Virus record (IMG/VR): IMGVR_UViG_3300033146_003306
Location: 1-54,866 of that record
Direction: 5' to 3' (one strand)
DNA length: 54,866 nucleotides
Source of the DNA: a virus
Taxonomy: Duplodnaviria; Caudoviricetes
A program made the position numbers and the translations under genes. Below the pieces are notes generated by a model that was not told where the DNA came from, did no database searches, and saw only the letters and a program-made list of their open reading frames with translations. Positions 2,353 to 32,738 of this stretch are shown here, piece by piece (positions within the stretch are counted from its first letter, which is position 1; the number at the start of each line of letters is the position of its first letter).

Positions 2353-3513
2353 TTAAAACACTCTTTTTCTGCCTGTACATAGTTTCTTTTCTCTCGTGTT
2401 CCATGCTTCTTGCGTAAGTGTTCTTAGTTTTTTGATATTATTTTTTGGGTCTTCCCATAGTAAATCAACTAAATCCCTGAATTTAATACTTGTTTTTGAA
2501 AATTCTGTCGCTTTTATTTTTGACGAAGGAGTTACGTTTGTAGATGAACATTCCCACATGTTTTCTGACAAAAACAAACACATACTTTCAATATCGTCTA
2601 TGCCGTACTCAGAATAAATATTAAATGTAATATTTCTCTTTTTTCCGTTAAGGTGATTCTTTTTCATTATTATGTTTGCTGTATTCCCAATCTCAATCTT
2701 GTTTCCATTTATTGTTTGTGTTATTTTTGCCCCCTGCATAACCCTCGCAGAATGAGTTGAATTATAGAAAGGGGATGTACCACCATTAGATGTCCATTTA
2801 TCTTCAAATCGGCTCGCATCCATCTTTTGCGTTAGCTGTTGAACAATAATCAAAACAGAGTTAGTTCCGGCAAGCATATCATTGCATTCGCCTAATATTT
2901 TTCTTATTGTTTTTGCTTTTTCTGCATTGTAACTTTTCTTTATGTCTTTTATTGCTTTTAAATCACCCTCTGCAACTTTAATTGCTTTTTCAATACTTTT
3001 TTCATAATCAGAGTCGGCCTTTAAGGTATCTAATGAGTCGAGTACCTGAATAAAAGGTCTGTTTGTTTTGCATTGTGCAATTATGCTTCCTCCAAACTGT
3101 TGAATTGTTTTAGAAAATCCACCTATCGGCTCTGTTAGCCTTCCTACCAACGAGGGGAATAATTCTTCAAGGTCAAAACTGCCTTTTACTTCTGAGTTAT
3201 TCATTATCAAATCATATTTATCAAACCTTTTATTTGAGGCTGCTTCTGCAAGCCCTGACATTGCAAGGAATGTCTTTCCTGCATCTGATTGTCCCGGCAA
3301 TGTATTTATACTGCCTTTCTTCCATCCTCCCGAAGCATACCCTGAGCATGCAAGATTAAACATCGTTGCACCTGTAGGAACAAGATCTTTTTCTGAAAAC
3401 TTAATTGCCTTCTCATCCATTTGTTCTTTTATATCTTCAAGATTTAACTTTACCTTTTCAGAAACTTCTCCAATCTTTTGCTTGTTTGATTTTCGTGGCT
3501 TTCTTGCTGTCAT
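2353..3513 (-). CDS. RecA/UvsX-like recombinase
   Basis: Walker A GQSDAGKT, VLDSL Walker B, IIVQQL, KKNH and YGID RecA-like segments. Confidence 0.85.
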   Translation of the reverse strand: MTARKPRKSNKQKIGEVSEKVKLNLEDIKEQMDEKAIKFSEKDLVPTGATMFNLACSGYASGGWKKGSINTLPGQSDAGKTFLAMSGLAEAASNKRFDKYDLIMNNSEVKGSFDLEELFPSLVGRLTEPIGGFSKTIQQFGGSIIAQCKTNRPFIQVLDSLDTLKADSDYEKSIEKAIKVAEGDLKAIKDIKKSYNAEKAKTIRKILGECNDMLAGTNSVLIIVQQLTQKMDASRFEDKWTSNGGTSPFYNSTHSARVMQGAKITQTINGNKIEIGNTANIIMKKNHLNGKKRNITFNIYSEYGIDDIESMCLFLSENMWECSSTNVTPSSKIKATEFSKTSIKFRDLVDLLWEDPKNNIKKLRTLTQEAWNTREKKLCTGRKRVF

Positions 3514-8427: not shown

Positions 8428-11400
8428 TTATTTTTGCTTTATGCTAACATTTTTTTGATAAGGAAGAACAAACTGTAAATTGTCTTTTTGTAATTTTCTT
8501 GATGGTAATGTACTTTTATCATGGCACATCATTTCTGCTAATAATAATTGCATTTTATTTTCTGATTCAATTATCTGCATTTCGTCCTCATCGAATATAC
8601 TTATTTTTTTATGTTTTTGTTTTGTTTTTGCATAAAAATCAGCCTTGTCGTCAATGCCGTTTATGCAGTCAAACGGCATATAGAAAGTATTTGTTTGCTT
8701 ATTAAATGCCCATACGTGACCTTTGGACAATCCATATTTAGGTGTCATTATTTTATATTGCTTATGAATCATTAATTCAATCATTGTTAATTTCGACTTT
8801 GCTACGTCTTTGTGTTTTTCATCCCATTTAGCAAAAGATAACGCTGCGGCGTAAAATATTTCTGGACAATTAATTTTATACCACATACACCAATATGTAA
8901 TTAATGAGTATGATGCAGAGTGAGAGTTATGAGACACAATGCCATTTGCGATAAAATTATGCCCAACTGTTTCCATCTCTACATCGTATGTCATTTCTAA
9001 TCCGGCATCAACTATTTTTATTACTCTCGATCCTATAGTTGGTATTCCTTTTGAATACCTTTTTATCCTTTCTCCTTTTAAATAATCATATTTTTTGTGA
9101 CAATTGCTACACAAATAAAGTAAATTTTTATCTGCATGATATTTAGAAAAATCGCCTTTTAAAATTTCAAGTGGGATTATATGTGCATACTCATATGTGT
9201 GAGGTATTTCTGAGTCTTTTTTAATTCCACACCTTTCACATACTCCCATAGACCTTTTAAAAACAACCTTTTTTGATGCTTTTAGGGTAATTGACCTTCC
9301 ATCTATGAACCCTATATTTTTTTCACCTCTCTTGAATCCTTTGCCATTGTACGTCTCTCCTGTGCCCCTTGTCTTGTCAGCTATGTTCGTGTTGCTTTTA
9401 TTTGTCTTTTCATACTCTCCTTTTATAACTACAACGCTACCTATGGATAATGAATCAATTCTTTTATATCCATTATGCGTTAATATCTTGTGGTTATGAG
9501 TTCCTTTTATACTCATTCCATTTTCAAGAATCACCTTAAAAACAACTTTGATGCCGTTTTTGTAAATTTTTTTTATTTTTCCAGGACGTATTTTTCCATC
9601 GTCATCCATTTGTAGTACTGTGATTCCTTGTTTTTTGTATTTCTCTCCAACGTGACTATTGGAATACCAACTGTCATAAAGCTCTCTTATCGTCACTTCT
9701 ATTTTTGTGTGTTGATTTCCTGATACTATAATAACAACCGTATCGCCGGATAAGCATTTGTTAAATCCGTATGAAGCCCATTTAAGCAACCCATCCCAAA
9801 ACTCTTTGGCTTGCTCAGGTGATAATGTTTTTTGTTTTATACATCCTTGTCGGAACTTTTCCCAATAAGGCTCAAACTCTTTTGCTTCTCTTTTTTTTCC
9901 TATTATCTTTCTAATATTGTCTGCTTCTGAAAATGGCAGCCCTGCTAATTTAACAATGCATTCCATTACCTGCTCTTGATATGCAAGAACACCGTATGTC
10001 TTTCTTGTTATCTCTGTATAAAACGGGTGTATGTCGTCCCACTTAGTGCCGTTTTTTCTGTCAATGTACATATCTGTCATGCCAGAATCCATTGGCCCAG
10101 GCCTTACCAACGCAAGGCAAGCCGACAGATCATCAAAATTGTTAGGCTTCATTTTTTTAACAACCTGGGTTGATGCCTTTGCTTCTATTTGAAACGCCCC
10201 TAATGTGTTTCCGGAGGATATCTCTTTAAATACATTTCTATTATCCATTGCGATATCTTCCCATTCAATACCGGATTCTCTTCTGCAATTATGGATAACA
10301 TCAAGTGTTGCTAACCCTAATACATCGAGCTTTAACAATCCGTTGTCTTCACAATCACCCATTATTGTTCCGCATATTCTTTTTACTGATTTTCCTTTGT
10401 CTCTTAATATGGTGCATTGACTACCTGACATCAACGACTTTTTATTAACTATTATTCCTGATGCATGAATTGAAGTGCCTCTGATACTCCCTTGACTTTT
10501 TTTTATGTAATCAACAACATGAGGGTATTTATTATTGAATATCCTTCCATATGCAGAGTTTAAACCTTCCTCTAAATGATCTCCTTCGTATGAAAAACAT
10601 GACTTTGCGAAAACATCAACTTCTTTAAGATTAATATCAAAAACCCTTGACACGTCCCTAACGGCCGTTTTTGCCCCCATTCTTAATAAGGTGACAATAT
10701 ATCCTGTCCTATCTTTTCCGTATGTTTCTGTTATATATTTGACTATCTCATGTCTTCTTTTTTGTGAAAAATCAATATCAATATCTGGATAATCATTTCT
10801 TTGCTCGTTAAGAAATCTTGCAAAGATTAAGTTATGTTCAATTGGATCAAGATGCGTCAAATTAAGAAGGTAAGAAACCAATGATCCAGAACAACTTCCA
10901 CGTCCAGGGCCGACAGGTATATCAACTGACCTTGCAAAATCAACTACATCCTTAACTATTAAAAAATACCTGCACAAATCTTTTTTCTCAAACAGGTCAA
11001 ATTCCTCATTTAGCCTTTGTATGTATATTTCATACTTATCTGCTTTTTCTTTGTTCCCTGCAAAATAAAATTCAGGAGTTTCATTTTCTGCAATTGAAAT
11101 ATCTATATTTAACTTGTTCTTGAACCCTTCCATGCAGCTCTGCCATAAAACATCGCTTGCTGATCTATTTGTCTTTTGTTTTATCTTTGGGGGTATTGGA
11201 AGAATTATTTTCTTCTTATTGATTTCCACGTTACATTCATCTGCAATTGACTGTGTATTTCGTATTGATATTTCTATTTCTTCTTTTGGAATAAAATCGT
11301 GCTTATAATTAAGGCATTCTTGTTCGCTCCATAAATAATATGTATCGCAAGGCAGTTTTATTCTGTTCTTGTCTGTCATTTTACCACGGGTGGCAACTGT

Positions 11401-12018
11401 CATTAATACGTCTTGAAGATTTGACTGCGTTTTATCTGGATAATGAGCATCGCAAGTCATAATTAAATCAAGGTTATACTTTAATGCATAATTATACACT
11501 TTCTTATTAAAATCGTAGTGTAACTTTAAGTCATGAGGTTGTATCTCACAAACAATATCTGCGTTATTTTCAAGCAACACTTGTATGTGCTGATCTGCTC
11601 TTGAATTATTTAGCCAACCACCTGGGCAGGCTGTTGAAATTATTATATTTCTTAAGTCTATTTCAAGTATTTTTTTTATGTCTATTTTTGGTTTATAGTA
11701 AAATCCATGAATATTTGCATATGAGCAAAGTGCTTGAAGGTCTTTGAAACCTTGATTATTTTTTGCAAGCATAAGCATATGGGTTGATTGACGTGTTTTT
11801 ATTAATACATCGTCTACAAAATAAAACTCAGCCCCGAATAGAGGTTTTATATCGTGTTTTTTACATGCAGATTGTAGCTGAATTGCGGACAACATATTTC
11901 CGTGTTCTGTTAATGCTATCGCTGATTGACCTAATTCTTTTGCTTTTAACACCCATTTTTCAGGAGATGACACACCGTCTAATGACGAAAACTCTGAATG
12001 GTTGTGAAGGTGTATCAT
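8428..12018 (-). CDS. dnaE: DNA polymerase III alpha subunit (phage DnaE) with intein
   Basis: PHP domain HLHNHSEFSSLDG, GPGRGS, PDIDIDF, KLDVLGL, RPGP, YQEQ, YGFNK|SH. Confidence 0.95.
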   Translation of the reverse strand: MIHLHNHSEFSSLDGVSSPEKWVLKAKELGQSAIALTEHGNMLSAIQLQSACKKHDIKPLFGAEFYFVDDVLIKTRQSTHMLMLAKNNQGFKDLQALCSYANIHGFYYKPKIDIKKILEIDLRNIIISTACPGGWLNNSRADQHIQVLLENNADIVCEIQPHDLKLHYDFNKKVYNYALKYNLDLIMTCDAHYPDKTQSNLQDVLMTVATRGKMTDKNRIKLPCDTYYLWSEQECLNYKHDFIPKEEIEISIRNTQSIADECNVEINKKKIILPIPPKIKQKTNRSASDVLWQSCMEGFKNKLNIDISIAENETPEFYFAGNKEKADKYEIYIQRLNEEFDLFEKKDLCRYFLIVKDVVDFARSVDIPVGPGRGSCSGSLVSYLLNLTHLDPIEHNLIFARFLNEQRNDYPDIDIDFSQKRRHEIVKYITETYGKDRTGYIVTLLRMGAKTAVRDVSRVFDINLKEVDVFAKSCFSYEGDHLEEGLNSAYGRIFNNKYPHVVDYIKKSQGSIRGTSIHASGIIVNKKSLMSGSQCTILRDKGKSVKRICGTIMGDCEDNGLLKLDVLGLATLDVIHNCRRESGIEWEDIAMDNRNVFKEISSGNTLGAFQIEAKASTQVVKKMKPNNFDDLSACLALVRPGPMDSGMTDMYIDRKNGTKWDDIHPFYTEITRKTYGVLAYQEQVMECIVKLAGLPFSEADNIRKIIGKKREAKEFEPYWEKFRQGCIKQKTLSPEQAKEFWDGLLKWASYGFNKCLSGDTVVIIVSGNQHTKIEVTIRELYDSWYSNSHVGEKYKKQGITVLQMDDDGKIRPGKIKKIYKNGIKVVFKVILENGMSIKGTHNHKILTHNGYKRIDSLSIGSVVVIKGEYEKTNKSNTNIADKTRGTGETYNGKGFKRGEKNIGFIDGRSITLKASKKVVFKRSMGVCERCGIKKDSEIPHTYEYAHIIPLEILKGDFSKYHADKNLLYLCSNCHKKYDYLKGERIKRYSKGIPTIGSRVIKIVDAGLEMTYDVEMETVGHNFIANGIVSHNSHSASYSLITYWCMWYKINCPEIFYAAALSFAKWDEKHKDVAKSKLTMIELMIHKQYKIMTPKYGLSKGHVWAFNKQTNTFYMPFDCINGIDDKADFYAKTKQKHKKISIFDEDEMQIIESENKMQLLLAEMMCHDKSTLPSRKLQKDNLQFVLPYQKNVSIKQK
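8926..9756 (-). mobile_element. 277-aa intein with HNH homing endonuclease
   Basis: begins CLSGDT, block B GTHNHKIL, ends TYDVEM..HNFIANGIVSHN|S; internal CERC...AHIIP...NLLYLCSNCH; removal restores GFNKSHS. Confidence 0.93.
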
Positions 12019-18642: not shown

Positions 18643-19920
18643 TTATTTTTTGTGCAAATAACTTAATATATGTGCAATGACATCTACTGTCATTCCGTTA
18701 CCTATCGCCTTGTATCTTTGAGTGTTACTTATTTTTACTTTTCCTTTATCATTTACCCCTGTGGAAGTATAATTTTCAGGTAATGTTTGCAGCTTTTCGC
18801 ATTCAATAGGGTGAAATTTCCTTATACAGTCACAGTCTTTCAGTACATTATTTGGGACTCCTTTAAAAAAATTTGCAACAATACAAGTTGATTTTTCATC
18901 TTTGATATCAGAATGATACCCGAAGTCCCAATGCGTCCTTTTTCCGTCTTTTGTTCGTCTATCCATGTACTTAACTGCCTTTTCTGAATGGACAAGTTTG
19001 TCAAAATTAACAACAAGGTGTTCTTTTGTCGTTGAAGTTGTTACGCAATTAGACTTACTCTCATTTCTTTGGGTTAATTCTTTTCCTGTTCTTGGTGAAA
19101 AATCTTTTCCAGTCTCTTTTCTCGCCCTCCTTCTTATCTTTTTTGCGTCACCTGTTCTTGTTTCTGTAAAAGTGACCGGATTTATGACGCTTTTTTTTAT
19201 GAATGACGGTATATGTCCTCCCCCAGATGACGTTTTTACTGTTGGAGACTTTTCTTCAAACACCCTTGGGGTAGTTTCGTTGAAACCTCCATATAAATTA
19301 TGCAGTGCAATTGGCAACGCATCTTTTAAAACAATATTTTTTAATAATATCTTTTTGTCTTCCGGCTGTTCAACTCCTGGAATATTTGTCCAATATAACC
19401 GTTTTCTATTTTGAGCAGATACCAAAGAGCTATTTATTTCTATGTAATTAACACCAATTGCATCAGAAAATACTTTCTTCCACTTTTTACCCATACTACT
19501 AACATTTTCAAGTAAAAAATATTTTGGCTTTAATATTTTCAAAGCTTTTATAAACTCCCAAAAAAGGTATGATTGTCCATCAAACTCAAACCCATCTAAC
19601 TTTAAATTTTCATATTGTTCAAGTGTTAGTATCTCTATCTTTTCTTTTGTAGACAAGCCGCTTCTTTTTCCTGCACAACTTAAATTTGTACAAGGACTCC
19701 CCGCAACAAACAAATCAATTTTAGGAATTTTTTCTAATTCAATGCTTCTTACATCTCCCAGTTGAATTGTCTCAGGAAAATTTTTTTGCGTTATTGAAAT
19801 TGCATATTTGTCGATTTCACTTGCGTAATATTTTTTTATTTTTATATTTTGTTTCTTTAGAGCTAATTGAGCACATGAAATTCCGTCAAAATAACTTAGA
19901 ACATTTATTGAATTTTCCAT
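18643..19920 (-). CDS. C5-cytosine DNA methyltransferase
   Basis: FDGIS, GSPCTNLS, ENV, QNRKRLYW, IGNG motifs. Confidence 0.93.
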   Translation of the reverse strand: MENSINVLSYFDGISCAQLALKKQNIKIKKYYASEIDKYAISITQKNFPETIQLGDVRSIELEKIPKIDLFVAGSPCTNLSCAGKRSGLSTKEKIEILTLEQYENLKLDGFEFDGQSYLFWEFIKALKILKPKYFLLENVSSMGKKWKKVFSDAIGVNYIEINSSLVSAQNRKRLYWTNIPGVEQPEDKKILLKNIVLKDALPIALHNLYGGFNETTPRVFEEKSPTVKTSSGGGHIPSFIKKSVINPVTFTETRTGDAKKIRRRARKETGKDFSPRTGKELTQRNESKSNCVTTSTTKEHLVVNFDKLVHSEKAVKYMDRRTKDGKRTHWDFGYHSDIKDEKSTCIVANFFKGVPNNVLKDCDCIRKFHPIECEKLQTLPENYTSTGVNDKGKVKISNTQRYKAIGNGMTVDVIAHILSYLHKK

Positions 19921-23108: not shown

Positions 23109-23273
23109 TTATTTATAATTATCAAAATAAACATTTGTGCATTTTTCGCTTTTACATACCCACAAAATGCCATTTTGTTTCAACATACACTTCATTATGT
23201 TTCCACATTCAATACATATATCAGATTCTAATTTTTTGTTTTTGTTTAATTTTTTTAGTTTTTTATTTGTCAT
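23109..23273 (-). CDS. small Zn-ribbon protein (54 aa)
   Basis: manual translation: CIECG...WVCKSEKC. Confidence 0.55.
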   Translation of the reverse strand: MTNKKLKKLNKNKKLESDICIECGNIMKCMLKQNGILWVCKSEKCTNVYFDNYK

Positions 23274-23277
23274 TATG

Positions 23278-23480
23278 CTAATAGTCTCCGTCTAACAAGA
23301 TTAATGCATGGTGTACGTTAACAGCATGCTTAATTTGGGAAGTAGGTGTTTTCTGCTCAACCACAATATACTTTAGTTTTTTTGAAATAAGTCTTTTGCT
23401 TGTTTTTTATTGTCTGCCATAATTACAGCTACAGCACCTACCTGATAACGACATTCAAAGCAACATACATATGTTTTCAT
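23278..23480 (-). pseudogene. small phage gene interrupted at an A7 run
   Basis: MKTYVCC..VGAVAVIMADNKKQAKDLFQK then -1 frame LKYIVV..LILLDGDY*. Confidence 0.6.
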
Positions 23481-23662
23481 TTTAATTTTCCTTTATTTAT
23501 AAATGTTAAAAATCATTAATAATAACATTATTATGTCTCCAACGAGTAAGGAATAAAATATCAAATAAAAAGCTTTATCTGATAAATAAAATTTTCTATC
23601 CAAAAATCTATTGTTTATTAAAAAATCATTCATTCGAGCCGCCTTTAAAATAAAATTTTCGT

Positions 23663-23686
23663 TGACTTAGTATATATACTAAGTCA
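23663..23686. promoter_or_regulatory. 24-bp perfect palindrome, putative operator
   Basis: TGACTTAGTATATATACTAAGTCA in intergenic DNA. Confidence 0.55.
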
Positions 23687-23716
23687 GGCAAGCAAATAAA
23701 ATAAAAATCTTATTTG

Positions 23717-24676
23717 TTATAAACATATATCTAATTGTTTGATTAAGTTATCCGCTTCTTTGCAAGTTAAGTCTCCTGGGTCTTTTGGGGTATTGTCTGG
23801 ATTTCTTAGTGATCCATCGAGTTCATATATTTCAGGGGTTATTCCTGTAAGTACTTGTATTTCATCAAATGCCTTTTGAGAGGCCGCTTGACCTGCTGAG
23901 TCAGGATCAAGAATAAAAACGCACTTATTAAAATTAGAAACAATGAATTTAACCTGAGCAGGAGTAAATTTAATACCAGACAAACTGCCGGAACAAGTCG
24001 GAAACATCCATGCGTCAGGTTGCCCCTCAAAAAACAACGTTCGTTGATTTTTACGGTGTTTTATATTGTCAAAATTATATATAAAAAAATTGCCAGGTAG
24101 AAGACAATCTGACTTCTTACAGGCTATATATTTTGCTCTCATACCAGACTGTTTTGTATCAACTGAAATGTCCCTGCATGTATATGTCATTAATTTGTTA
24201 TTCAAGTAATAAGGAATAAAGATTTTGTTTTTTTGATAAAAAGGGTCTGTTTCATATCCGGTAGATTGCAACTTAAAAAAATGAACTAAACGATCAACGT
24301 CAAATCCACGTTGCTCAAGATAAATTTTATGATATTTCACTAACGGTCTTAAATTTAATTTTTCAATATTTACTTTTTCTACATTTGCTTCCCATCCTGA
24401 GAAGTTTTGAGATATAAAACCTGTTGAGTGTTCAGATATTATTTGCTTTGCATGATTAATATCTACCCCTAAAACACTCGACAGTGCTTTATTTACGTTG
24501 TGACCTCCTCACCTGAAACACACACATGAGTTTTGAGCATGATTAAAGCCCATATGCGAGCCGTCATTACCGTGGCAATATGGACAAGGTACGTTTGACC
24601 ATCCATGACGGTAATGACGGCCAGAATTTGATGTTTGAATGCGGTGTATGCTAAATATTTTTTCGAAGTCAATCAT
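23717..24676 (-). CDS. DNA primase (Zn-finger + TOPRIM), 319 codons with in-frame TGA at codon 56
   Basis: ATG 24676 with AGGA RBS is in frame with track ORF 23717..24340; CPYC..CFR*GGH, YLEQRGF, AKY, FFEGQPDA, LDPDSAG; only interruption is TGA 24511-24509. Confidence 0.85.
24470..24491 (-). promoter_or_regulatory. candidate bacterial SECIS hairpin
   Basis: UAAAGCACU-GUCG-AGUGUUUUA (9 bp, one G-U); loop starts GU, 26 nt after the UGA. Confidence 0.4.
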
Positions 24677-24696
24677 TTTAATTTTCCTGTCTTAAT

Positions 24697-24906
24697 TTAA
24701 TTTTTAATTTTATTATGTTTTTTACAGTTTTTTATTACGTTGTTTATATCAAGGTATTTATTGTGCTCTCTTAATATTATCTTATTGGTAACTTTACACC
24801 TACCTTCATACACATAGACCTTTTTTGAATTAAAGTTTGTATAATAATGAGAATATTTAAAATTAGGTTTAAAGGAACAATTGCCACAGTTTTTTTTGTC
24901 TTTCAT
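24697..24906 (-). CDS. small Cys-containing hypothetical protein
   Basis: RBS, CGNC...C...C. Confidence 0.55.
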   Translation of the reverse strand: MKDKKNCGNCSFKPNFKYSHYYTNFNSKKVYVYEGRCKVTNKIILREHNKYLDINNVIKNCKKHNKIKN

Positions 24907-25014
24907 TTTAACTTCCTTTTTTAATTTTTATGCTTAATAAAGGCCAATTTTGCTGACACCTCATTATTTGTTTAAGCATTTGATAAAAATAGGTATGTGC
25001 TCTTGTTCAACTTT

Positions 25015-26355
25015 TTAATAAGAGCTGTATACTTTTAGTCTTTTGTGCCACTGTTTTAAAAAAACTGGATTATTATCAACAAAATCATATACCCTGACTT
25101 GTTTTTTGCCGGATTGTGTTCTAATTAATCTGCCTAAAATTTGTTCTAATCTTCCATCATATGAAATAGGCATACACAGGAATAGATCAGTGAAGCCGCC
25201 ATAGTCGAATCCTTCTGCTATTAGGCTTGTCGTAGCAAGCAGTATTGTAACTTTATTATTATTTAGGTCTTCAACCACCTGCTTTCTTTTTTTTGTTGAT
25301 ATTTTGCCTGATAGATAGTGATATGAAATTTGTTCAAAATCAAGATTTTTTTTAATAAAATCAAGGTGAGTCGAATGGTCAGATAAAACAAGGCAACATG
25401 AATAGTTTTGCTGAGATGCCTTTTTTATTTCGTCTACAATTATTTGATTTCTTATGTTTGATTTTTTTAATTTTGACAATAACGAAACATAATCACCCCT
25501 TTCTCCATTAAAAAATAAATTAGTTTGCACTTTTATTATTTTGGGTTTTAGTATCTTACCTTGCCTGACAGCTTCTGATTTATTCATTTTATATATTATG
25601 TCGCCCAAACTCCAAAAAATGAAATTTCCTAGGCCATCTCTTCTTTTTGGAGTCGCCGTCAGTCCTAAAATATAAAAACTCTTAAACAAGCTTACACATT
25701 CAGAAAAAGTCCTTCCTGGCACTTTGTGATTTTCATCTACAATTAACATTCCGAAATCTTTACAGAAATTATGCTTTTTGTTTTTATTTATGGTACTTGT
25801 TACCAGTCCAACTGTAATGTCTTTTATGTTAAAATGGTTGTCTCCTACTAATCCGCAATCATAATCCAAAAACTGTTTAATTCTGGCTTGCCATTGATAC
25901 ATTAATTCTTTTGTGTGACAGATTATAAATGTTTTTTGAGATCGTTTATATGTGACATATAGAGCAACTACGGTTTTTCCTGTCCCTGTAGGTAGTTGAA
26001 GAACACCAACCTCATTATTTAGACACGCATTGACCGCGGGCAGTTGCTCTTTGTACGGAGTTATATTACATTTGAACTTAATGTTTACGTTATAAGTTGT
26101 TTTGTCGTCAAAAGAAATATCAGGGTAATACTTGTTGCACAATATACAAAGATAGCCTTCAACTCCCCTTGGTACGCTGAAACAGTCTTTGTGTTTTTTG
26201 TACGCAGATATATTTTTCTGGATGCCGTATACACGCCTGGCGTTTTGTATAGCATCTGTGTATTTTGGATTTGTCATTGTTAAATGTTTTTTTAATATCT
26301 TTTCGATTATTGGCATATCATAAATATAAATTCTTTTTTCGATTATAATCTTCAT
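25015..26355 (-). CDS. superfamily 2 DExH helicase
   Basis: LPTGTGKT, VDENH, GLTATPKR, EGFD, QILGRLIR. Confidence 0.92.
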   Translation of the reverse strand: MKIIIEKRIYIYDMPIIEKILKKHLTMTNPKYTDAIQNARRVYGIQKNISAYKKHKDCFSVPRGVEGYLCILCNKYYPDISFDDKTTYNVNIKFKCNITPYKEQLPAVNACLNNEVGVLQLPTGTGKTVVALYVTYKRSQKTFIICHTKELMYQWQARIKQFLDYDCGLVGDNHFNIKDITVGLVTSTINKNKKHNFCKDFGMLIVDENHKVPGRTFSECVSLFKSFYILGLTATPKRRDGLGNFIFWSLGDIIYKMNKSEAVRQGKILKPKIIKVQTNLFFNGERGDYVSLLSKLKKSNIRNQIIVDEIKKASQQNYSCCLVLSDHSTHLDFIKKNLDFEQISYHYLSGKISTKKRKQVVEDLNNNKVTILLATTSLIAEGFDYGGFTDLFLCMPISYDGRLEQILGRLIRTQSGKKQVRVYDFVDNNPVFLKQWHKRLKVYSSY

Positions 26356-26435: not shown

Positions 26436-28433
26436 TTACCTGCTTACGTATGTTAATGTTATTATAAAATCAGCGGCTGAGTTGACACTTGCATCGGTTG
26501 ATAGATTTACAAAAATAGCTTTCGAGCTTGTACTGTACGCTATCTTGTCTTTAGAGGATATAAACCCTGTTTTGTGCGATGTATCAAGCGTTATAACTAA
26601 ACTTTCAGTCCCTGTTCCTGTAGACGCTCCACCGTGATCCACCGTGATCACCGCAGAACCTGCGGTAAGCTCAACTGCTTCTACTCCTACACTGCATAGT
26701 CGCATGATGTGGCCTGTTCTCAACCCTCCTAAAACAGAACTTCTTGGTATAAATTCTTTAGAAAGTGAGGCTCCTGTATTCTCTATAATAAAGGTTTCTT
26801 TATAAAAATTGCCGTCCCTAATTATGTTAGAGGGGTGGCCTTGCTCGTCCGATATCATTTTACCAGAACCGAGAGAACCTATTTCAAGTTGCGAAAACTC
26901 GTTAAATAGTGCGCCCGGCTTTATAGTTATTCCGTTTGGGTTTTGTGTGTTCCATCCTTCCTGTCGGAGATTGACAAATTTATTTGAAAATGCCGCCGAA
27001 TCATGTATCTCATATGTTTCTGAGCCTGCTAAAGATGAAGGGAAAGGCAAATCAAGCGTTAGCGTTGTTGCGTTATTAGATGCGATTCTACGCACTTCGC
27101 CGTTATGTGCCCCTGACGATATCTTTACAGATTTATTGGCGTGTTCCAGAGAAGCCCATGTTTGTGTTGAATCGGTAACCGTTATCGTTGTAGCTGACGT
27201 TAAGGTTCCGCCTTCTTCGTAGGCGTAGTCATTTAGTTTTATTAGTTGAGAGTATAATAACTCGCCGGAGATATTTGTAAAAAGATTGCCATGCCCTGCT
27301 CTAAGGTCTATTAATGTATCTAATACAGCCCCTCTTTTTAATCCGTTTATAATATTTGCGTTACATCCGTTTGCAGAGATAAGTGTCCCATTCGGTTTAA
27401 ATTGTATGCCTATCTGAGTCCCTCCCGAGCCAAACAAAGAAAACGAATCAAAAACATTATAGTACGGGCCGACTCCATTACTGCCTTGACCGTAAATCAG
27501 AATAGCGTTTGTTGTTTTATTTTGGACTTCAAAGTTTCTGTATTCACAATAATTACCACCTGTAAAGTCTATAGATTTACTCCCCGTTTCTGTGTAAAGG
27601 TATATCGACTCCATAACGCACCGCTCTCTTTGCGGGTCTCCATAGCTTAAATTGATTGCTAATTGCGTTCCAGTGCCAGTATAGTGCAGTCTTACAGACG
27701 TACTGTCACCATACATTTTCATGTCAGACACGCCAAAATACAGTGTGTTAGAGTGCCTGTAAGTCACGTTTTCATCTTTTATTTTAGGAAAGAACACACT
27801 ACAACCATTAGCCCTTGCGTATGCAAACGCATTATTAAGTGCAGTTGCGTTATCGGTTGCGTTGTCGGCTACTGCCCCCCAATAACATATATTGGCTACT
27901 TCTCCATTTTCAAATACTCTTACCCACCTACCAGTGGCGATAGATGTAACTTTTATTGTTATTCCGTTGTCATCTACGGCTGTACTTGTTGCGTCCCATC
28001 TGAATTTCCCTTGCCCTCCATCCCCATTTATTGTATGTCCGAGAAGATCAATAACAACGCCGTCAATAACTCCTGGGGTTAATCTTAAATCTGCAATAGT
28101 ATCAACACCGATACCATTGCTTTGATAAACAGCCAGAAAACCATTCGCTAAATCAGTAGCAAATGTGCCTGATATATGATCTCTAATAACAACATAAACA
28201 GTCGCATTTACTGCATACCAAACAAGGTCTTTTTCTTGATATGAAACTCCTGTCGCCCATGTCCCCCTTGCAATGTACCCGACAAGCCTATTCATTGCTG
28301 TTGCGACAGTTACTACTGTTCCATTGTCAGTTATTACATCTTGACCAATAGCTCCGTTTGCAACATTATCAATTATGTCTGTTGCTTCTACAAGCCTTGT
28401 TATTTGAGTAGTTGTTTCAGAAGCAGTTGCCAT
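26436..28433 (-). CDS. tailspike / receptor-binding protein with beta-helix
   Basis: virion anchor, DTIADLR..GDGGQGKFRWD..GRWVR, WGAVAD..DNATALNNA pectate-lyase-3-like start. Confidence 0.8.
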   Translation of the reverse strand: MATASETTTQITRLVEATDIIDNVANGAIGQDVITDNGTVVTVATAMNRLVGYIARGTWATGVSYQEKDLVWYAVNATVYVVIRDHISGTFATDLANGFLAVYQSNGIGVDTIADLRLTPGVIDGVVIDLLGHTINGDGGQGKFRWDATSTAVDDNGITIKVTSIATGRWVRVFENGEVANICYWGAVADNATDNATALNNAFAYARANGCSVFFPKIKDENVTYRHSNTLYFGVSDMKMYGDSTSVRLHYTGTGTQLAINLSYGDPQRERCVMESIYLYTETGSKSIDFTGGNYCEYRNFEVQNKTTNAILIYGQGSNGVGPYYNVFDSFSLFGSGGTQIGIQFKPNGTLISANGCNANIINGLKRGAVLDTLIDLRAGHGNLFTNISGELLYSQLIKLNDYAYEEGGTLTSATTITVTDSTQTWASLEHANKSVKISSGAHNGEVRRIASNNATTLTLDLPFPSSLAGSETYEIHDSAAFSNKFVNLRQEGWNTQNPNGITIKPGALFNEFSQLEIGSLGSGKMISDEQGHPSNIIRDGNFYKETFIIENTGASLSKEFIPRSSVLGGLRTGHIMRLCSVGVEAVELTAGSAVITVDHGGASTGTGTESLVITLDTSHKTGFISSKDKIAYSTSSKAIFVNLSTDASVNSAADFIITLTYVSR

Positions 28434-28988: not shown

Positions 28989-31900
28989 TTAAATTCCAGT
29001 TGTTCCGTCAGCCGTGTAAACTCTTTCGTCATCAACAATACACATTAACTTTACTTTTGTTGATTGTTGAGGTTGCATTGTTTCAACAAGACATTTTTTG
29101 TCATAATCAGCTCCCTTACCGAATTGGAAATAAGTTTTTTCCATTTCATACCCCGTATAAATAAAAGACGGTGGAGTAACTGACATTAAAACTTTTTTTG
29201 GCTCTCCTGTTACTTCGGTAACAAGATACGGTGTGTCTTGCGTTCCGTCTTTTTTTCTAAAAGCAATATAATGATCTCCTGACTCAAATGTAACAGTTTC
29301 AGATAACTCAATTTCATTTCCGTTTACTCCAAGAACTACCCCTGACAGCCCATAGCCTATCCTTGGGTTTGAGATACTTATATAATCAAGCCTTGAAAGA
29401 ATCCTACCCTCAAGTTCTGTAATAAAACTAGGGAGTTTTCTTCTATACGCATTACACGCAGCTTCATATTTTGCTTCCCTTATTGCGTGTGCTTCCTGTG
29501 TTATTCCCCATCTTTGAATCTTTGCCGGACGATCTGTTGTTCCACCTGTAATTGTTTGTAATGTTTGTTTAAATACCCATTCATCATCATCAAGGTATTC
29601 AAATTCTACACTGTCAGGAGTATCATTGTCAAAATTAATGTAATCGACATTAAAGCTGTTCGCTTCAATATTATTTATTGTAAAAACCTGCTTTGGTATT
29701 GTTTTTGGTTGGTCTCTTACAAAATCAATTGAACCTGCGACTAACAATGGCTGCGCCCTTCCTACCCTCATTATCTTTTTTAATGATTCCCAAAAAACTT
29801 CTTTTGACTCAAATACGCCATTGCAGTAATCACCTCTACTTGACCATATAGTATCCATTGCAAGTAGCTCATCAGCGTTTAATTCTGTATCGCTAATAGC
29901 AACGCTGTATTCAGAGTTCCTACACGCATCTGCTGCCGCCCATGCAATGCTCGAAGTCGCAACAGGATCAGACCACATAGCACCGTCATATATCGGTAAT
30001 TTACGTGTTGATACCGTATTGAACTTAGACAATGAAGCATTTACCAAAGAATCAGTTGTTTTTACTTTTACGGCTACAACGGTAACGTCTCCGTAAGTAC
30101 CTGTATTTGTTAAGAATGCTTTTAAGTCAGTAAATACCATTTCTGATTGGCCTTTTTGAGAATCTGCGTAATCAGATGCTGTTCCAAATATCCTATTTAC
30201 CCTTGCCCTTATTTTTTTTGCGGTTACAGGGATACCTGTTACTTCATATGTTTTTGCAATTGGGTTTTTTTGAGCTGCTGTTATTGTTTGTGTTCCAGTA
30301 TCAAGCCATGAAGATGATTCTGTTCCATTTTCAGCAATAAGCTTATATTGCAACTTAAAATTTACAGTTAGGTTTTCAAGCTCTCCATTTGTAAGGTTTG
30401 TGCCGTATAGGCCGTTAGGGAGTACAATATCAAACTGTATTTTTTGAATAGAAGAGTTTGTGTTTGGAACAATATAACCTATAGAATCACTGCCAGGAAC
30501 AAACGTCATTGTTGTTTGCGTAGACAAATCAGCTCCAGAAGGAACAGTTTCAATAAACTCATATGCAACATATTCAATTAAGTCTTCTGTTGTTACTGTT
30601 CCATCTGTGTAATAATAAGACGATTTTATAACAAACCTTGCATTGTACGAGCTTAATGGATCATCAATTATTATTGTATCCCCTGCAATAAACCCATCAA
30701 ATGAGTCAGCTACTCCATAGACTCCATTTGTAAAAGGTATTGTTCCAACTGTCCCTGTTATAAATGTTAAAAATGAATTAGACATAACAGTCCCTATAGG
30801 AAATGTGTAATTTGCAGTAAGTGAAGGCGACACGATATAACCAATGTAAGAGGGGTCTCCGTCTGCAATATTAACTATTTCGGTTGTATATATTGTTCCG
30901 TCAGGTTCTCTTATTTTTAAAACTTCGTTTACTTTCCATACGTACCATTTTGCTTGCGGGGAAAAGTAAAGATTTCCGAGGTAGTCTGTTTCTGCAATAT
31001 CTCCTGATTCAACTGTAAGAGTGGTCAGTGGATTTGACTCGACTTTATATTCATCAACCCTTCTTACAGAAATATTATCAACTTGATTTGAAGTAAAAAC
31101 ATTATCGTAAAATGTTTTTCCTGATGTACATGTTTGTATTTCTCCTGTTATTCCCGCAAGACAAAGTATGTCTGACGTTGCTTCTACACAGTAAAAATCA
31201 CCTGTAAAATTATTTGCATTTGATTGAGTTATCCAATTTATACCGTCAAGACTTGTTTGTATTTTGCCTGTGTCGCCTACAATAGTAAACATTCCGTCTG
31301 CCCATGTTATGCCCGTGAATGTGCCTGTAAAGCCGTCTGCATTGCTTCTATGAGTCCATGTGATACCTTCTCCATCTTCGCATGTCTGTATTTCACCGTT
31401 TGATCCTACAATTACAAATATGTTTAAGTCATTACTATACTCTGCGCCCCAAAATGCATCTAAATATCCACCTCCGTAACCATTGTCTGCTGTTCTGTGC
31501 GTCCATGTTATGGCGTTAAGGTCACTTGTTTGTATTTCGCCTTCCCATCCAACAGCTAAATAAACATTGTTTCCCGATATTATGCTTTTAAAAGTACCTG
31601 TGTAGCTATTATCTGCTGCTCTGTGCGTCCATGTACCTCCTACTGATTGCTGAATCTCTCCGTTATCCCCTACCGCAATTGGGAATATTCCTCCTACAAC
31701 TCCGTTAAAGTCACCTGTGTAACTATCCGCAGGTGTTTCTTTTGTCCATGTTGCCGTATCAGGGCTTGTTTGTATCTCTCCGTTTTCTCCGACTGCAATG
31801 TAGCCCCCTGCTGTAGAATCAACGTCATAAAAAAAGTCAGTAAAGCCGTTGTCTGCTGTCCTGTGTGTCCATGTTATGGCATCTGGACTTGTCTGTATTT

Positions 31901-32738
31901 CTCCAAAGCTCCCTACAAGAACAAGTAAATTTGCTTTAGAGCATATACCTCTAAAAGTATGTGTTGTGCTTAAATCAGGTGTTCTGTGAGTCCAATCTTC
32001 ACCATTAATAGCAAGCCTTACATTTTCATTATTTGAAAAGGTTCTTATTTGAGCATATGAAAGGTCGGTCGAAGGAACAGTGTCAAAATTAAATGATTCA
32101 AAGTCAAATTCCCCTTGCCCCTGACAAAATAAAAGGTATGCATATTTATTATTTTGCTCAAATTGGCTCCACGATTGCATTGCATAGTGTGGATATCTTT
32201 TCATCCGTCCGTACTGGACAGGAATAATTGCATTTAGAGCAGACGTATTTCCTCTGTCGTTAAGGTCGTAAATAGAAGATGACGTACCTTGCCTTGAAGA
32301 TAATCCTCCTATTCCTTCTTGTTGTAGTGGCTCTGGTGGAAACGCCTTGTTTATGAGCATTGATCCACCAAGCATGACTGCACCTCCAAGCATGCCACTC
32401 ATAAAAGTTCCGGCTAAACCTGCTCCGAATAATTGCATGCCTGGTATCATCATTGCGCCTGCGGCAAGAGCAATCGAAAGTACAGTAGCAACAGGGTTTG
32501 ATCCACCGTCACCTCCTCCTAACGGAAAAGCGACAAAAATAACTATATCGTTTTTTTTAATTATTAATGAATCCCAGTGTTTTCTTGAAATAGGCTTTTC
32601 ATTGACAATCAAAATATATGGCGCAACTAATGATATTTTAGTGTCTTGAATATACTCCTGTAGTAAGAAATCATTATTTATTATTTTTTTATTTTCAATG
32701 CCCGTCATAGGCATGTATGTTTGAATTATTTCTGCCAT
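28989..32738 (-). CDS. tail tip / host-specificity protein J-like (central hub)
   Basis: ubiquitin-like N-terminus, IPVQYGR, STRKLP..W..P.ATSSIAWA, VRDQ; follows DUF1833 and NlpC genes. Confidence 0.88.
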   Translation of the reverse strand: MAEIIQTYMPMTGIENKKIINNDFLLQEYIQDTKISLVAPYILIVNEKPISRKHWDSLIIKKNDIVIFVAFPLGGGDGGSNPVATVLSIALAAGAMMIPGMQLFGAGLAGTFMSGMLGGAVMLGGSMLINKAFPPEPLQQEGIGGLSSRQGTSSSIYDLNDRGNTSALNAIIPVQYGRMKRYPHYAMQSWSQFEQNNKYAYLLFCQGQGEFDFESFNFDTVPSTDLSYAQIRTFSNNENVRLAINGEDWTHRTPDLSTTHTFRGICSKANLLVLVGSFGEIQTSPDAITWTHRTADNGFTDFFYDVDSTAGGYIAVGENGEIQTSPDTATWTKETPADSYTGDFNGVVGGIFPIAVGDNGEIQQSVGGTWTHRAADNSYTGTFKSIISGNNVYLAVGWEGEIQTSDLNAITWTHRTADNGYGGGYLDAFWGAEYSNDLNIFVIVGSNGEIQTCEDGEGITWTHRSNADGFTGTFTGITWADGMFTIVGDTGKIQTSLDGINWITQSNANNFTGDFYCVEATSDILCLAGITGEIQTCTSGKTFYDNVFTSNQVDNISVRRVDEYKVESNPLTTLTVESGDIAETDYLGNLYFSPQAKWYVWKVNEVLKIREPDGTIYTTEIVNIADGDPSYIGYIVSPSLTANYTFPIGTVMSNSFLTFITGTVGTIPFTNGVYGVADSFDGFIAGDTIIIDDPLSSYNARFVIKSSYYYTDGTVTTEDLIEYVAYEFIETVPSGADLSTQTTMTFVPGSDSIGYIVPNTNSSIQKIQFDIVLPNGLYGTNLTNGELENLTVNFKLQYKLIAENGTESSSWLDTGTQTITAAQKNPIAKTYEVTGIPVTAKKIRARVNRIFGTASDYADSQKGQSEMVFTDLKAFLTNTGTYGDVTVVAVKVKTTDSLVNASLSKFNTVSTRKLPIYDGAMWSDPVATSSIAWAAADACRNSEYSVAISDTELNADELLAMDTIWSSRGDYCNGVFESKEVFWESLKKIMRVGRAQPLLVAGSIDFVRDQPKTIPKQVFTINNIEANSFNVDYINFDNDTPDSVEFEYLDDDEWVFKQTLQTITGGTTDRPAKIQRWGITQEAHAIREAKYEAACNAYRRKLPSFITELEGRILSRLDYISISNPRIGYGLSGVVLGVNGNEIELSETVTFESGDHYIAFRKKDGTQDTPYLVTEVTGEPKKVLMSVTPPSFIYTGYEMEKTYFQFGKGADYDKKCLVETMQPQQSTKVKLMCIVDDERVYTADGTTGI

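Follow-up and report, generated by a model that had tools for sequence, protein, structure and literature searches.

The IMG/VR viral record IMGVR_UViG_3300033146_003306 (54,866 bp, linear, 85% complete according to CheckV), analysed here over its whole length and called the window below, encodes a DnaG/T7-type primase whose reading frame is crossed by a single in-frame TGA. This TGA stands at codon 56, where relatives of the protein carry the last cysteine of a CxxC...CxxC motif, and it is followed by an RNA hairpin that resembles a bacterial selenocysteine insertion sequence (SECIS). A first-pass annotation had drawn attention to the frame and its one stop at the motif cysteine, to a 9-bp stem (24491-24470) with a GUCG loop 26 nt after the UGA, to TGA acting as a normal stop elsewhere (3510, 45380, 52390) without global recoding, and to a downstream GTG at 24340 lacking an evident ribosome-binding site; all four statements held up. 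The observation stands, and chance alone would not readily produce it. Judging from the sequence comparisons described below, we tentatively propose that the codon may be recoded as selenocysteine (Sec), a reading that we place just short of an even chance.

The primase frame lies on the minus strand and runs for 320 codons from ATG 24676 to TAA 23719-23717, with TGA 24511-24509 as its only internal stop. The peptide CPYCHGNDGSHMGFNHAQNSCVCFR leads up to the stop and GGH follows it, giving the layout CPYC...CVCFR, TGA, GGH. Homology to other primases extends on both sides of codon 56, so that the gene presents a single in-frame UGA within an open homologous frame, one of the marks by which selenoprotein genes are recognized. 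The read-through product matches phrog_47 'DNA primase' (E 2.1e-26, residues 25-314) and the DnaG structure 5guj in the PDB (E 6e-4), and hhalign aligned it, over the TOPRIM region only, to residues 1-265 of T7 gp4 with a probability of 91.7%. These three matches place a TOPRIM/RNA-polymerase catalytic region in the protein; the Pfam model Toprim_2 scored 19.3 bits, under its cut-off of 22.1. When the family profile was run against 401 genomes, those of the order of genome G001, it matched only the hosts' own DnaG genes (~600 aa), in 372 of the 401, with no internal stops among the matches listed. As for the cysteines, the spacing CxxC-x18-CxxC and its conservation point to a putative zinc-binding domain.

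The N-terminal piece has a normal translation start, since an AGGA motif lies 8 nt before the ATG and motifs of the AAAGGA type are common in the window, where they precede 41 of 53 starts of open reading frames (ORFs). Gene callers report a second piece, a 207-aa fragment that begins at GTG 24340; no AGGA/GGAG-type ribosome-binding motif is found upstream of this codon.

The residue replaced by the TGA is one of the most conserved of the family. A collection of 5.8 billion proteins returned 11 proteins among 725 candidates, namely 10 full-length relatives (319-322 aa, 61-67% identity) and the window's own 207-aa fragment. In all 10 relatives the TGA column is Cys, as part of a CFRC motif. An exhaustive search of representatives yielded 1862 family members at E <= 0.001, and 146 of the 150 listed representatives were aligned, leaving out the fragments P0013, P0058 and P0127 and the window's own 55-aa piece (P0028). 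Column 56 is Cys in 145 of these 146 and a gap in the remaining one, and the three other motif cysteines, C31, C34 and C53, are each Cys in 146 of 146. Homologues therefore carry Cys at the aligned column, as is the case for Sec positions in general. At the DNA level, metagenome contigs provided only two primase relatives, L002 and L003, and a weak third (L004); both L002 and L003 have TGT at the TGA column. Ten more distant family loci from IMG/VR keep all four Cys and have no internal stop. No closer relative with DNA was obtained, as the viral contig and genome contig collections gave no primase match. In the sequences compared, no other lineage shares the TGA, which replaces one of the family's most conserved residues.

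Chance offers few ways to hit such a residue. Among the 149 single-base routes to a stop in the primase gene, 12 hit Cys codons and 4 hit the four motif Cys. Taken with the frequency at which hairpins pass the basic SECIS limits (see below), the joint chance of a random nonsense hit on this residue and a passing hairpin is roughly 0.03 x 0.06 at most. We also asked how far the protein has drifted. In the set of 11 sequences, 9 changes at columns invariant in the others are private to the window's primase, compared with 0-7 in its relatives, and the window's sequence is the most isolated of the 11, with a maximum identity of 0.667. The private changes appear in line with this isolation; they suggest no obvious long-term decay, and the evidence for relaxation is not clear.

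The hairpin, of sequence UAAAGCACU-GUCG-AGUGUUUUA, has its loop starting 26 nt after the A of the UGA. It exists only in the sense RNA because of its G-U pair, and it was missed by a search for Watson-Crick inverted repeats. A 38-nt segment folds at -9.0 kcal/mol (z -2.52) and a 60-nt segment, which includes a weak lower stem, at -11.9 kcal/mol (z = -2.56; 3 of 200 shuffled sequences did as well). The bacterial SECIS (bSECIS) model, as given in the Fig. 2 legend of PMC13188914, calls for a loop of 3-9 nt on a stem of 4-16 bp, a G within the first two loop positions, mostly then G or U, a distance of 16-37 nt between UGA and loop, and a minimum free energy (MFE) of at most -7.5 kcal/mol. The hairpin falls within all four limits as stated there, with its 4-nt GUCG loop, 9 bp, 26 nt and MFE of -9.0 to -11.9.

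The strength of this hairpin is uncommon in the window. Counting as equally strong any hairpin with at least 8 stacked pairs and an energy of -8.0 kcal/mol or lower, we found one at 137 of 54803 coding-strand positions (0.25%), 44 of them with GU or GG opening the loop. When the same peptide was recoded synonymously according to the codon usage of the window, 316 of 5000 recodings passed the basic limits (6.3%) and 8 of 5000 were as strong (0.16%). Two rare codons, CTG (5.1% of 1087 Leu) and TCG (6.7% of 1111 Ser), are used at the upper end of the stem and in the loop. In the Cys-bearing (TGT) relatives L002 and L003 the same place folds no better than shuffles (z +0.52 and +2.47). Around the TGA site, Rfam gave only chance-level matches and no SECIS family. 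Just 3' of the hairpin lies a second inverted repeat, perfect over 8 nt, AGATATTA/TAATATCT (24434-24441 and 24457-24464), which forms a second stem-loop in a 100-nt fold.

A second strain of the phage carries the same TGA. The public sequencing run X1 contains 63% of sampled 31-mers of the gene, and its Logan contigs were compared with the window over 23200-25200. A 442-nt contig of depth 3.5 covers 24327-24768 and differs from the window at 24413, 24422, 24557 and 24664; six differing letters were counted and four placed, the other two lying near the contig ends by the rule of the comparison table. No difference was seen at TGA 24509-24511 nor anywhere in the hairpin. With 18 listed differing positions in 2 kb (~1.4%), X1 represents another strain rather than a second copy of the same consensus, although its sample could be related to that of the window. 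The TGA is real and common to both strains by descent or recombination. Runs X2, X3 and X4 supplied only short pieces outside the TGA (165 nt and 153 nt at 23727-23908, or unrelated fragments). The G of the window at 23809 is A in X1, X2 and X3, and the non-coding flanks of X1 carry short indels within A/T runs (TT added behind 23393, AA behind 24922, a single A behind 24973 and another behind 24984).

According to the recoding proposal, the TGA at codon 56 would be inherited in the phage lineage and translated instead of ending the protein. Host SelB carrying Sec-tRNA(Sec) would bind the hairpin located 26 nt past the UGA and so deliver Sec at the fourth zinc-ligand Cys position, leading to a full-length 319-aa primase; in a close variant, a tRNA(Sec)-like tRNA(Cys) would deliver Cys. 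The passage of the ribosome over the UGA, recognition by SelB, the Sec machinery of the host and the role of Sec as a zinc ligand are what we infer from the gene. In its full form, the proposal states that the phage converted its fourth zinc-ligand Cys to Sec and evolved a SECIS, that its replication depends on host Sec machinery and selenium, and that this is the first bacteriophage selenoprotein and the first Sec in a primase zinc motif; we regard this as possible, if somewhat doubtful. That the codon might in addition act as a nutrient or host-range switch, as the first-pass annotation had put forward, is pure conjecture.

The Sec interpretation in that annotation came with several checks. 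The predicted alignment of the Sec column with Cys is borne out by all 10 close relatives and by 145 of the 146 representatives, the TGA is no assembly error since it is kept in a strain ~1.4% diverged, and the bSECIS check came out as described above. The TGA in the second strain, the invariant Cys column, the fit to bSECIS and the absence of the hairpin in two Cys relatives thus speak for the interpretation. What failed to appear is a second TGA lineage: no related primase with a TGA at the same column and a covarying hairpin was present among the 10 close relatives, the 146 representatives and the 10 IMG/VR loci.

Several observations weigh against Sec recoding. The first concerns conservation. 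The two metagenome loci likewise lack a TGA at column 56, no other 55-aa N-terminal fragment exists in the 5.8-billion-protein collection (1 candidate and 1 match, the window's own), nor does any other C-terminal fragment, and UGA and SECIS are shared together only by the near-identical strain X1 and by no independent orthologue in which they could be seen to be conserved or to covary. The second concerns the hairpin, as the basic limits are passed at 3306 of 54803 coding-strand positions (6.0%, ~1 in 16) and by 75 of 1102 UGA triplets in any frame. The strict thresholds were set after the hairpin had been seen, so the chance of such a hairpin ranges from 0.2% to 6%; moreover, according to the available parts of PMC12013277, both strategies for selenoprotein search are prone to false positives. 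Further, no Pfam zinc-finger model matched the N-terminal part, which hhalign did not align to T7 gp4 either, and over the whole window ARAGORN found no tRNA and Rfam at gathering thresholds gave no match. The literature provides little precedent. Within the literature searched, as far as the sources were available, no precedent was found for a structural zinc site with Sec among its ligands, primase Cys motifs included, and no natural phage selenoprotein is reported, supplementary family lists being outside its coverage. The words phage, virus and viral do not occur in the available text of the 2026 review of the prokaryotic selenoproteome (PMC13188914), nor do zinc, primase, phage and virus in the BSepDB paper. 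The same review, in the parts available, does consider Sec a possible metal ligand in some predicted selenoproteins.

The foremost rival explanation is a plain nonsense allele, in which a change of TGY to TGA cuts the primase to 55 aa, the hairpin is fortuitous and the gene is in early decay. Such an allele could survive if the host's DnaG or a co-infecting helper genome did the priming, or if the contigs derive from defective genomes. A single substitution suffices to create it, all other relatives have Cys with no second TGA lineage, the ~6% of positions passing by chance makes an accidental hairpin plausible, and it agrees with the primase having the most private changes at invariant columns and with the lack of phage selenoproteins in the literature searched. 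A possible further lesion is found in X1, where an extra T in a T7 run behind 24227 would shift the frame at about codon 149. As this T is seen in one 151-nt contig, with a depth of 2.4, it is perhaps an error; a genuine insertion would point to decay. In the window the TGA is the single lesion of the gene; a decaying pseudogene would be expected to show several, with a dN/dS near 1 after the first.

The comparison of the two strains speaks against a nonsense allele. Within the gene, five of the substitutions between X1 and the window are synonymous (S40, T85, T143, G218, L290) and two are non-synonymous (E5K, I88M), where 73-80% non-synonymous would be expected at random; the probability of two or fewer among seven is 0.005-0.017. 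Downstream of the TGA the counts are four and one (P 0.007-0.020). The gene accumulated 7 substitutions and 1 indel in 960 nt, and ~850 nt of mostly non-coding flank 11 substitutions and 4 indels. Changes between strains that are mostly synonymous, and fewer than in the flanks, speak for continued translation beyond the TGA, with the reservation that the test includes only 7 sites and that X1 and the window perhaps share a habitat or sampling campaign. A nonsense allele must in addition account for its presence in two strains ~1.4% apart, for a hit on a motif Cys open to only 4 of 149 nonsense routes, and for a hairpin which at its actual strength is a 0.16-0.25% event, uses rare codons and is missing in the Cys-bearing relatives. 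Finally, the primase is unlikely to be dispensable because the phage brings its own complete replisome, otherwise intact, and no second primase was recognised among the window's genes. We consider a plain nonsense allele distinctly doubtful.

Read-through of the UGA without Sec is another way in which the downstream region could be translated. A near-cognate tRNA (Trp or Cys) or an opal suppressor, from the host or from the missing ~15% of the phage genome, would pass the stop, and the hairpin could boost read-through or slow termination, leading to a small dose of full-length primase. The signs of purifying selection downstream of the TGA agree with this, and a phage tRNA could lie outside the window as the record is 85% complete. 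The usual near-cognate insertion at UGA is Trp, which at codon 56 would remove the invariant Cys, and the position of the stop on a Cys codon has no explanation in this scheme unless Cys is inserted. A candidate for that is the tRNA(Sec)-like tRNA(Cys) of delta-proteobacteria, which 'may function as opal suppressor' according to the available parts of PMC5389517. A general suppressor, however, would also pass the TGA that ends 5 of 53 genes, and the window itself is without a tRNA. Read-through without Sec seems quite unlikely.

The use of TGA as an ordinary stop is clear from the 53 minus-strand ORFs of at least 100 aa, of which 44 end in TAA, 5 in TGA and 4 in TAG. The ends at 3510, 45380 and 52390 are among the TGA stops, some of which lie in ATGA overlaps. 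If TGA is read as sense, 9 frames of more than 300 codons hold a TGA; it is inside a gene only in the primase, and in the other 8 it either precedes the start codon or terminates the gene itself. One internal TGA in 54.9 kb and five of 53 ORFs ending in TGA rule out a global reassignment as in code 4 or a code resembling 25. Bypass by frameshifting was rejected, the frame being identical on either side of the TGA. Re-initiation was judged unlikely both at the GGAGG right after the TGA, where no ATG, GTG or TTG is in reach, and at the first in-frame start, GTG 24340, given the missing ribosome-binding motif. The GGAGG derives from Gly-Gly codons; in L002, TGT is followed by GGAGGAGGA. No intrinsic terminator is present within 23300-25100.

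A sequencing or assembly error hiding a true TGT or TGC, which a single-base difference in a metagenome-assembled viral record might suggest, is extremely improbable as the independently built X1 contig differs elsewhere and is the same at 24509-24511; with a depth of 3.5 and contigs dropping rare variants, minority TGY genomes are nevertheless possible.

We compared the arrangement with known cases of recoding and with known primases. E. coli fdhF is the textbook bacterial selenoprotein gene with an intragenic SECIS; its stem has a bulged U, and the phage hairpin has none. As in bacterial selenoprotein genes, the primase has an in-frame UGA where homologues have Cys, with a stem-loop just 3' within the coding sequence, a small loop opening with G then U, and spacing and MFE within the bSECIS limits (PMC13188914, available parts). 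It differs from them in being a phage gene, in that the residue is a presumed structural zinc ligand and not a redox or catalytic one, and in having no UGA orthologue to show conservation.

Viral Sec is known from the poxvirus GPx genes of molluscum contagiosum and fowlpox, in which the host machinery reads the UGA as Sec, the fowlpox SECIS being in the coding region; the viral cases discussed in the available parts of PMC8310308 are these GPx genes captured from cells. The proposed recoding shares with them a virus gene and a UGA redefined by host machinery. The poxvirus genes, in contrast, are captured cellular genes of eukaryotic viruses with a eukaryotic-type SECIS, while here the virus is bacterial, the putative SECIS of bacterial type, and the protein a core replication protein whose relatives all have Cys. 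In [NiFeSe] hydrogenases, the metal site is formed by two CxxC and Sec replaces a Cys of the C-terminal CxxC (PMC13582414, available parts), a precedent for metal coordination by Sec inside a CxxC pair. That site is nevertheless the redox-active Ni-Fe centre of a cellular enzyme, with Sec recurring in many lineages, and the primase site is a presumed structural Zn site. Like DnaG and T7 gp4-type primases, the phage protein has a TOPRIM region and an N-terminal CxxC-x18-CxxC that is invariant in the family; unlike them, its fourth Cys codon is TGA, and it is a stand-alone protein of ~320 aa not fused to a helicase. Phages with recoded stop codons also have in-frame stops in essential genes, but the window has one such codon in 54.9 kb, with TGA ending 5 of 53 genes and no suppressor tRNA.

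The window belongs to a tailed phage, with genes for terminase, tape-measure and J-like tail proteins. Its tiling ORFs of at least 100 aa are all on the minus strand, at a GC of 0.27-0.40. The coordinates of the primase elements and of other features are collected in Table 1.

Table 1. Elements of the primase gene and other features of the window
Feature	Position	Strand	Remarks
Primase, DnaG/T7-type	23717..24676	-	N-terminal CxxC...CxxC and TOPRIM; 319 aa when translated through the TGA
In-frame TGA at codon 56, putative Sec codon	24509..24511	-	last Cys position of the second CxxC
Other motif Cys codons	C31 24586-24584, C34 24577-24575, C53 24520-24518	-	span 24518..24586
SECIS-like RNA hairpin	24470..24491	-	9-bp stem including one G-U, GUCG loop
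AGGA ribosome-binding motif	24685..24688	-	8 nt upstream of ATG 24676
207-aa fragment from GTG 24340, as called by gene callers	23717..24340	-	without Cys motif and linker
DnaE-type polymerase with intein	8428..12018	-	own replisome of the phage
Processivity factor and clamp loader			own replisome of the phage
DnaB-like helicase and DnaC-like loader			own replisome of the phage
Initiator, SF2 helicase, UvsX-like recombinase, primase			own replisome of the phage
C-5 cytosine DNA methyltransferase	18643..19920	-	PF00145, E 9.7e-34
Perfect 22-nt palindrome	23664..23685		~30 nt downstream of the primase stop
665-aa ORF	26436..28433	-	EPS-depolymerase-like region (phrog_4250, E 3.2e-13)
J-like (TipJ-type) tail protein	28989..32738	-	

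In the replication module, the DnaE-type DNA polymerase III alpha has PHP, NTPase and finger domains and an Intein_splicing match at residues 771-1031 (E 1.1e-12), and the module also includes the cytosine methyltransferase, whose atlas neighbours are mainly viral. The 665-aa ORF is located between the tail genes and the SF2 helicase. The palindrome near the end of the primase gene, GACTTAGTATATATACTAAGTC, could be a protein-binding site; it has no further match in the window at up to 3 mismatches, no T-run after it, and was not terminator-like in the terminator scan.

We looked for the host through relatives of the phage's proteins. The phage collection holds no near DNA match to the window, and its best protein matches reach at most 28% identity for the primase, 32.5% for TerL (in a Croceibacter phage) and at most 35.5% for DnaE. 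The protein atlas pointed to 'Viruses' only, and the cluster records named no organism. A scan with the J-like tail protein, using one genome per species, detected 242 relatives, and the 80 best were retained. Among these 80, the top cellular relative (43%) is in a prophage of a metagenome-assembled genome of Desulforapulum autotrophicum (L005), followed by Micavibrio and other Alphaproteobacteria at 32-37% identity; altogether, prophages in Desulfobacterales and Alphaproteobacteria range from 32 to 43%. The GC of these prophage loci is 0.43-0.56 (0.46 for the Desulforapulum locus), compared with 0.32-0.35 in the phage and two relatives, and TerL and the window's primase were not found in the four tail-match genomes searched. 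On these two grounds, Desulforapulum and the Alphaproteobacteria were rejected as host lineage; the strong difference in GC suggests that the tail module is mosaic and that the match is no sign of the host. The regular AAAGGA before starts suggests that the host uses Shine-Dalgarno pairing, and the GC of the phage suggests a low-GC host.

If Sec recoding of the primase is true, phages can recruit the SelB pathway of their host for a core replication enzyme. Infection would then be tied to the selenium supply and to Sec decoding by the host, which would act as a host-range filter, and Sec chemistry would extend to the primase zinc motif. Should the TGA be a nonsense allele only, the window would be a modestly useful example of a phage lineage that is maintained in more than one dataset with a truncated version of its only primase. 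Because gene callers divide such genes, in this case into pieces of 55 and 207 aa, comparable cases in viromes would be listed as broken.

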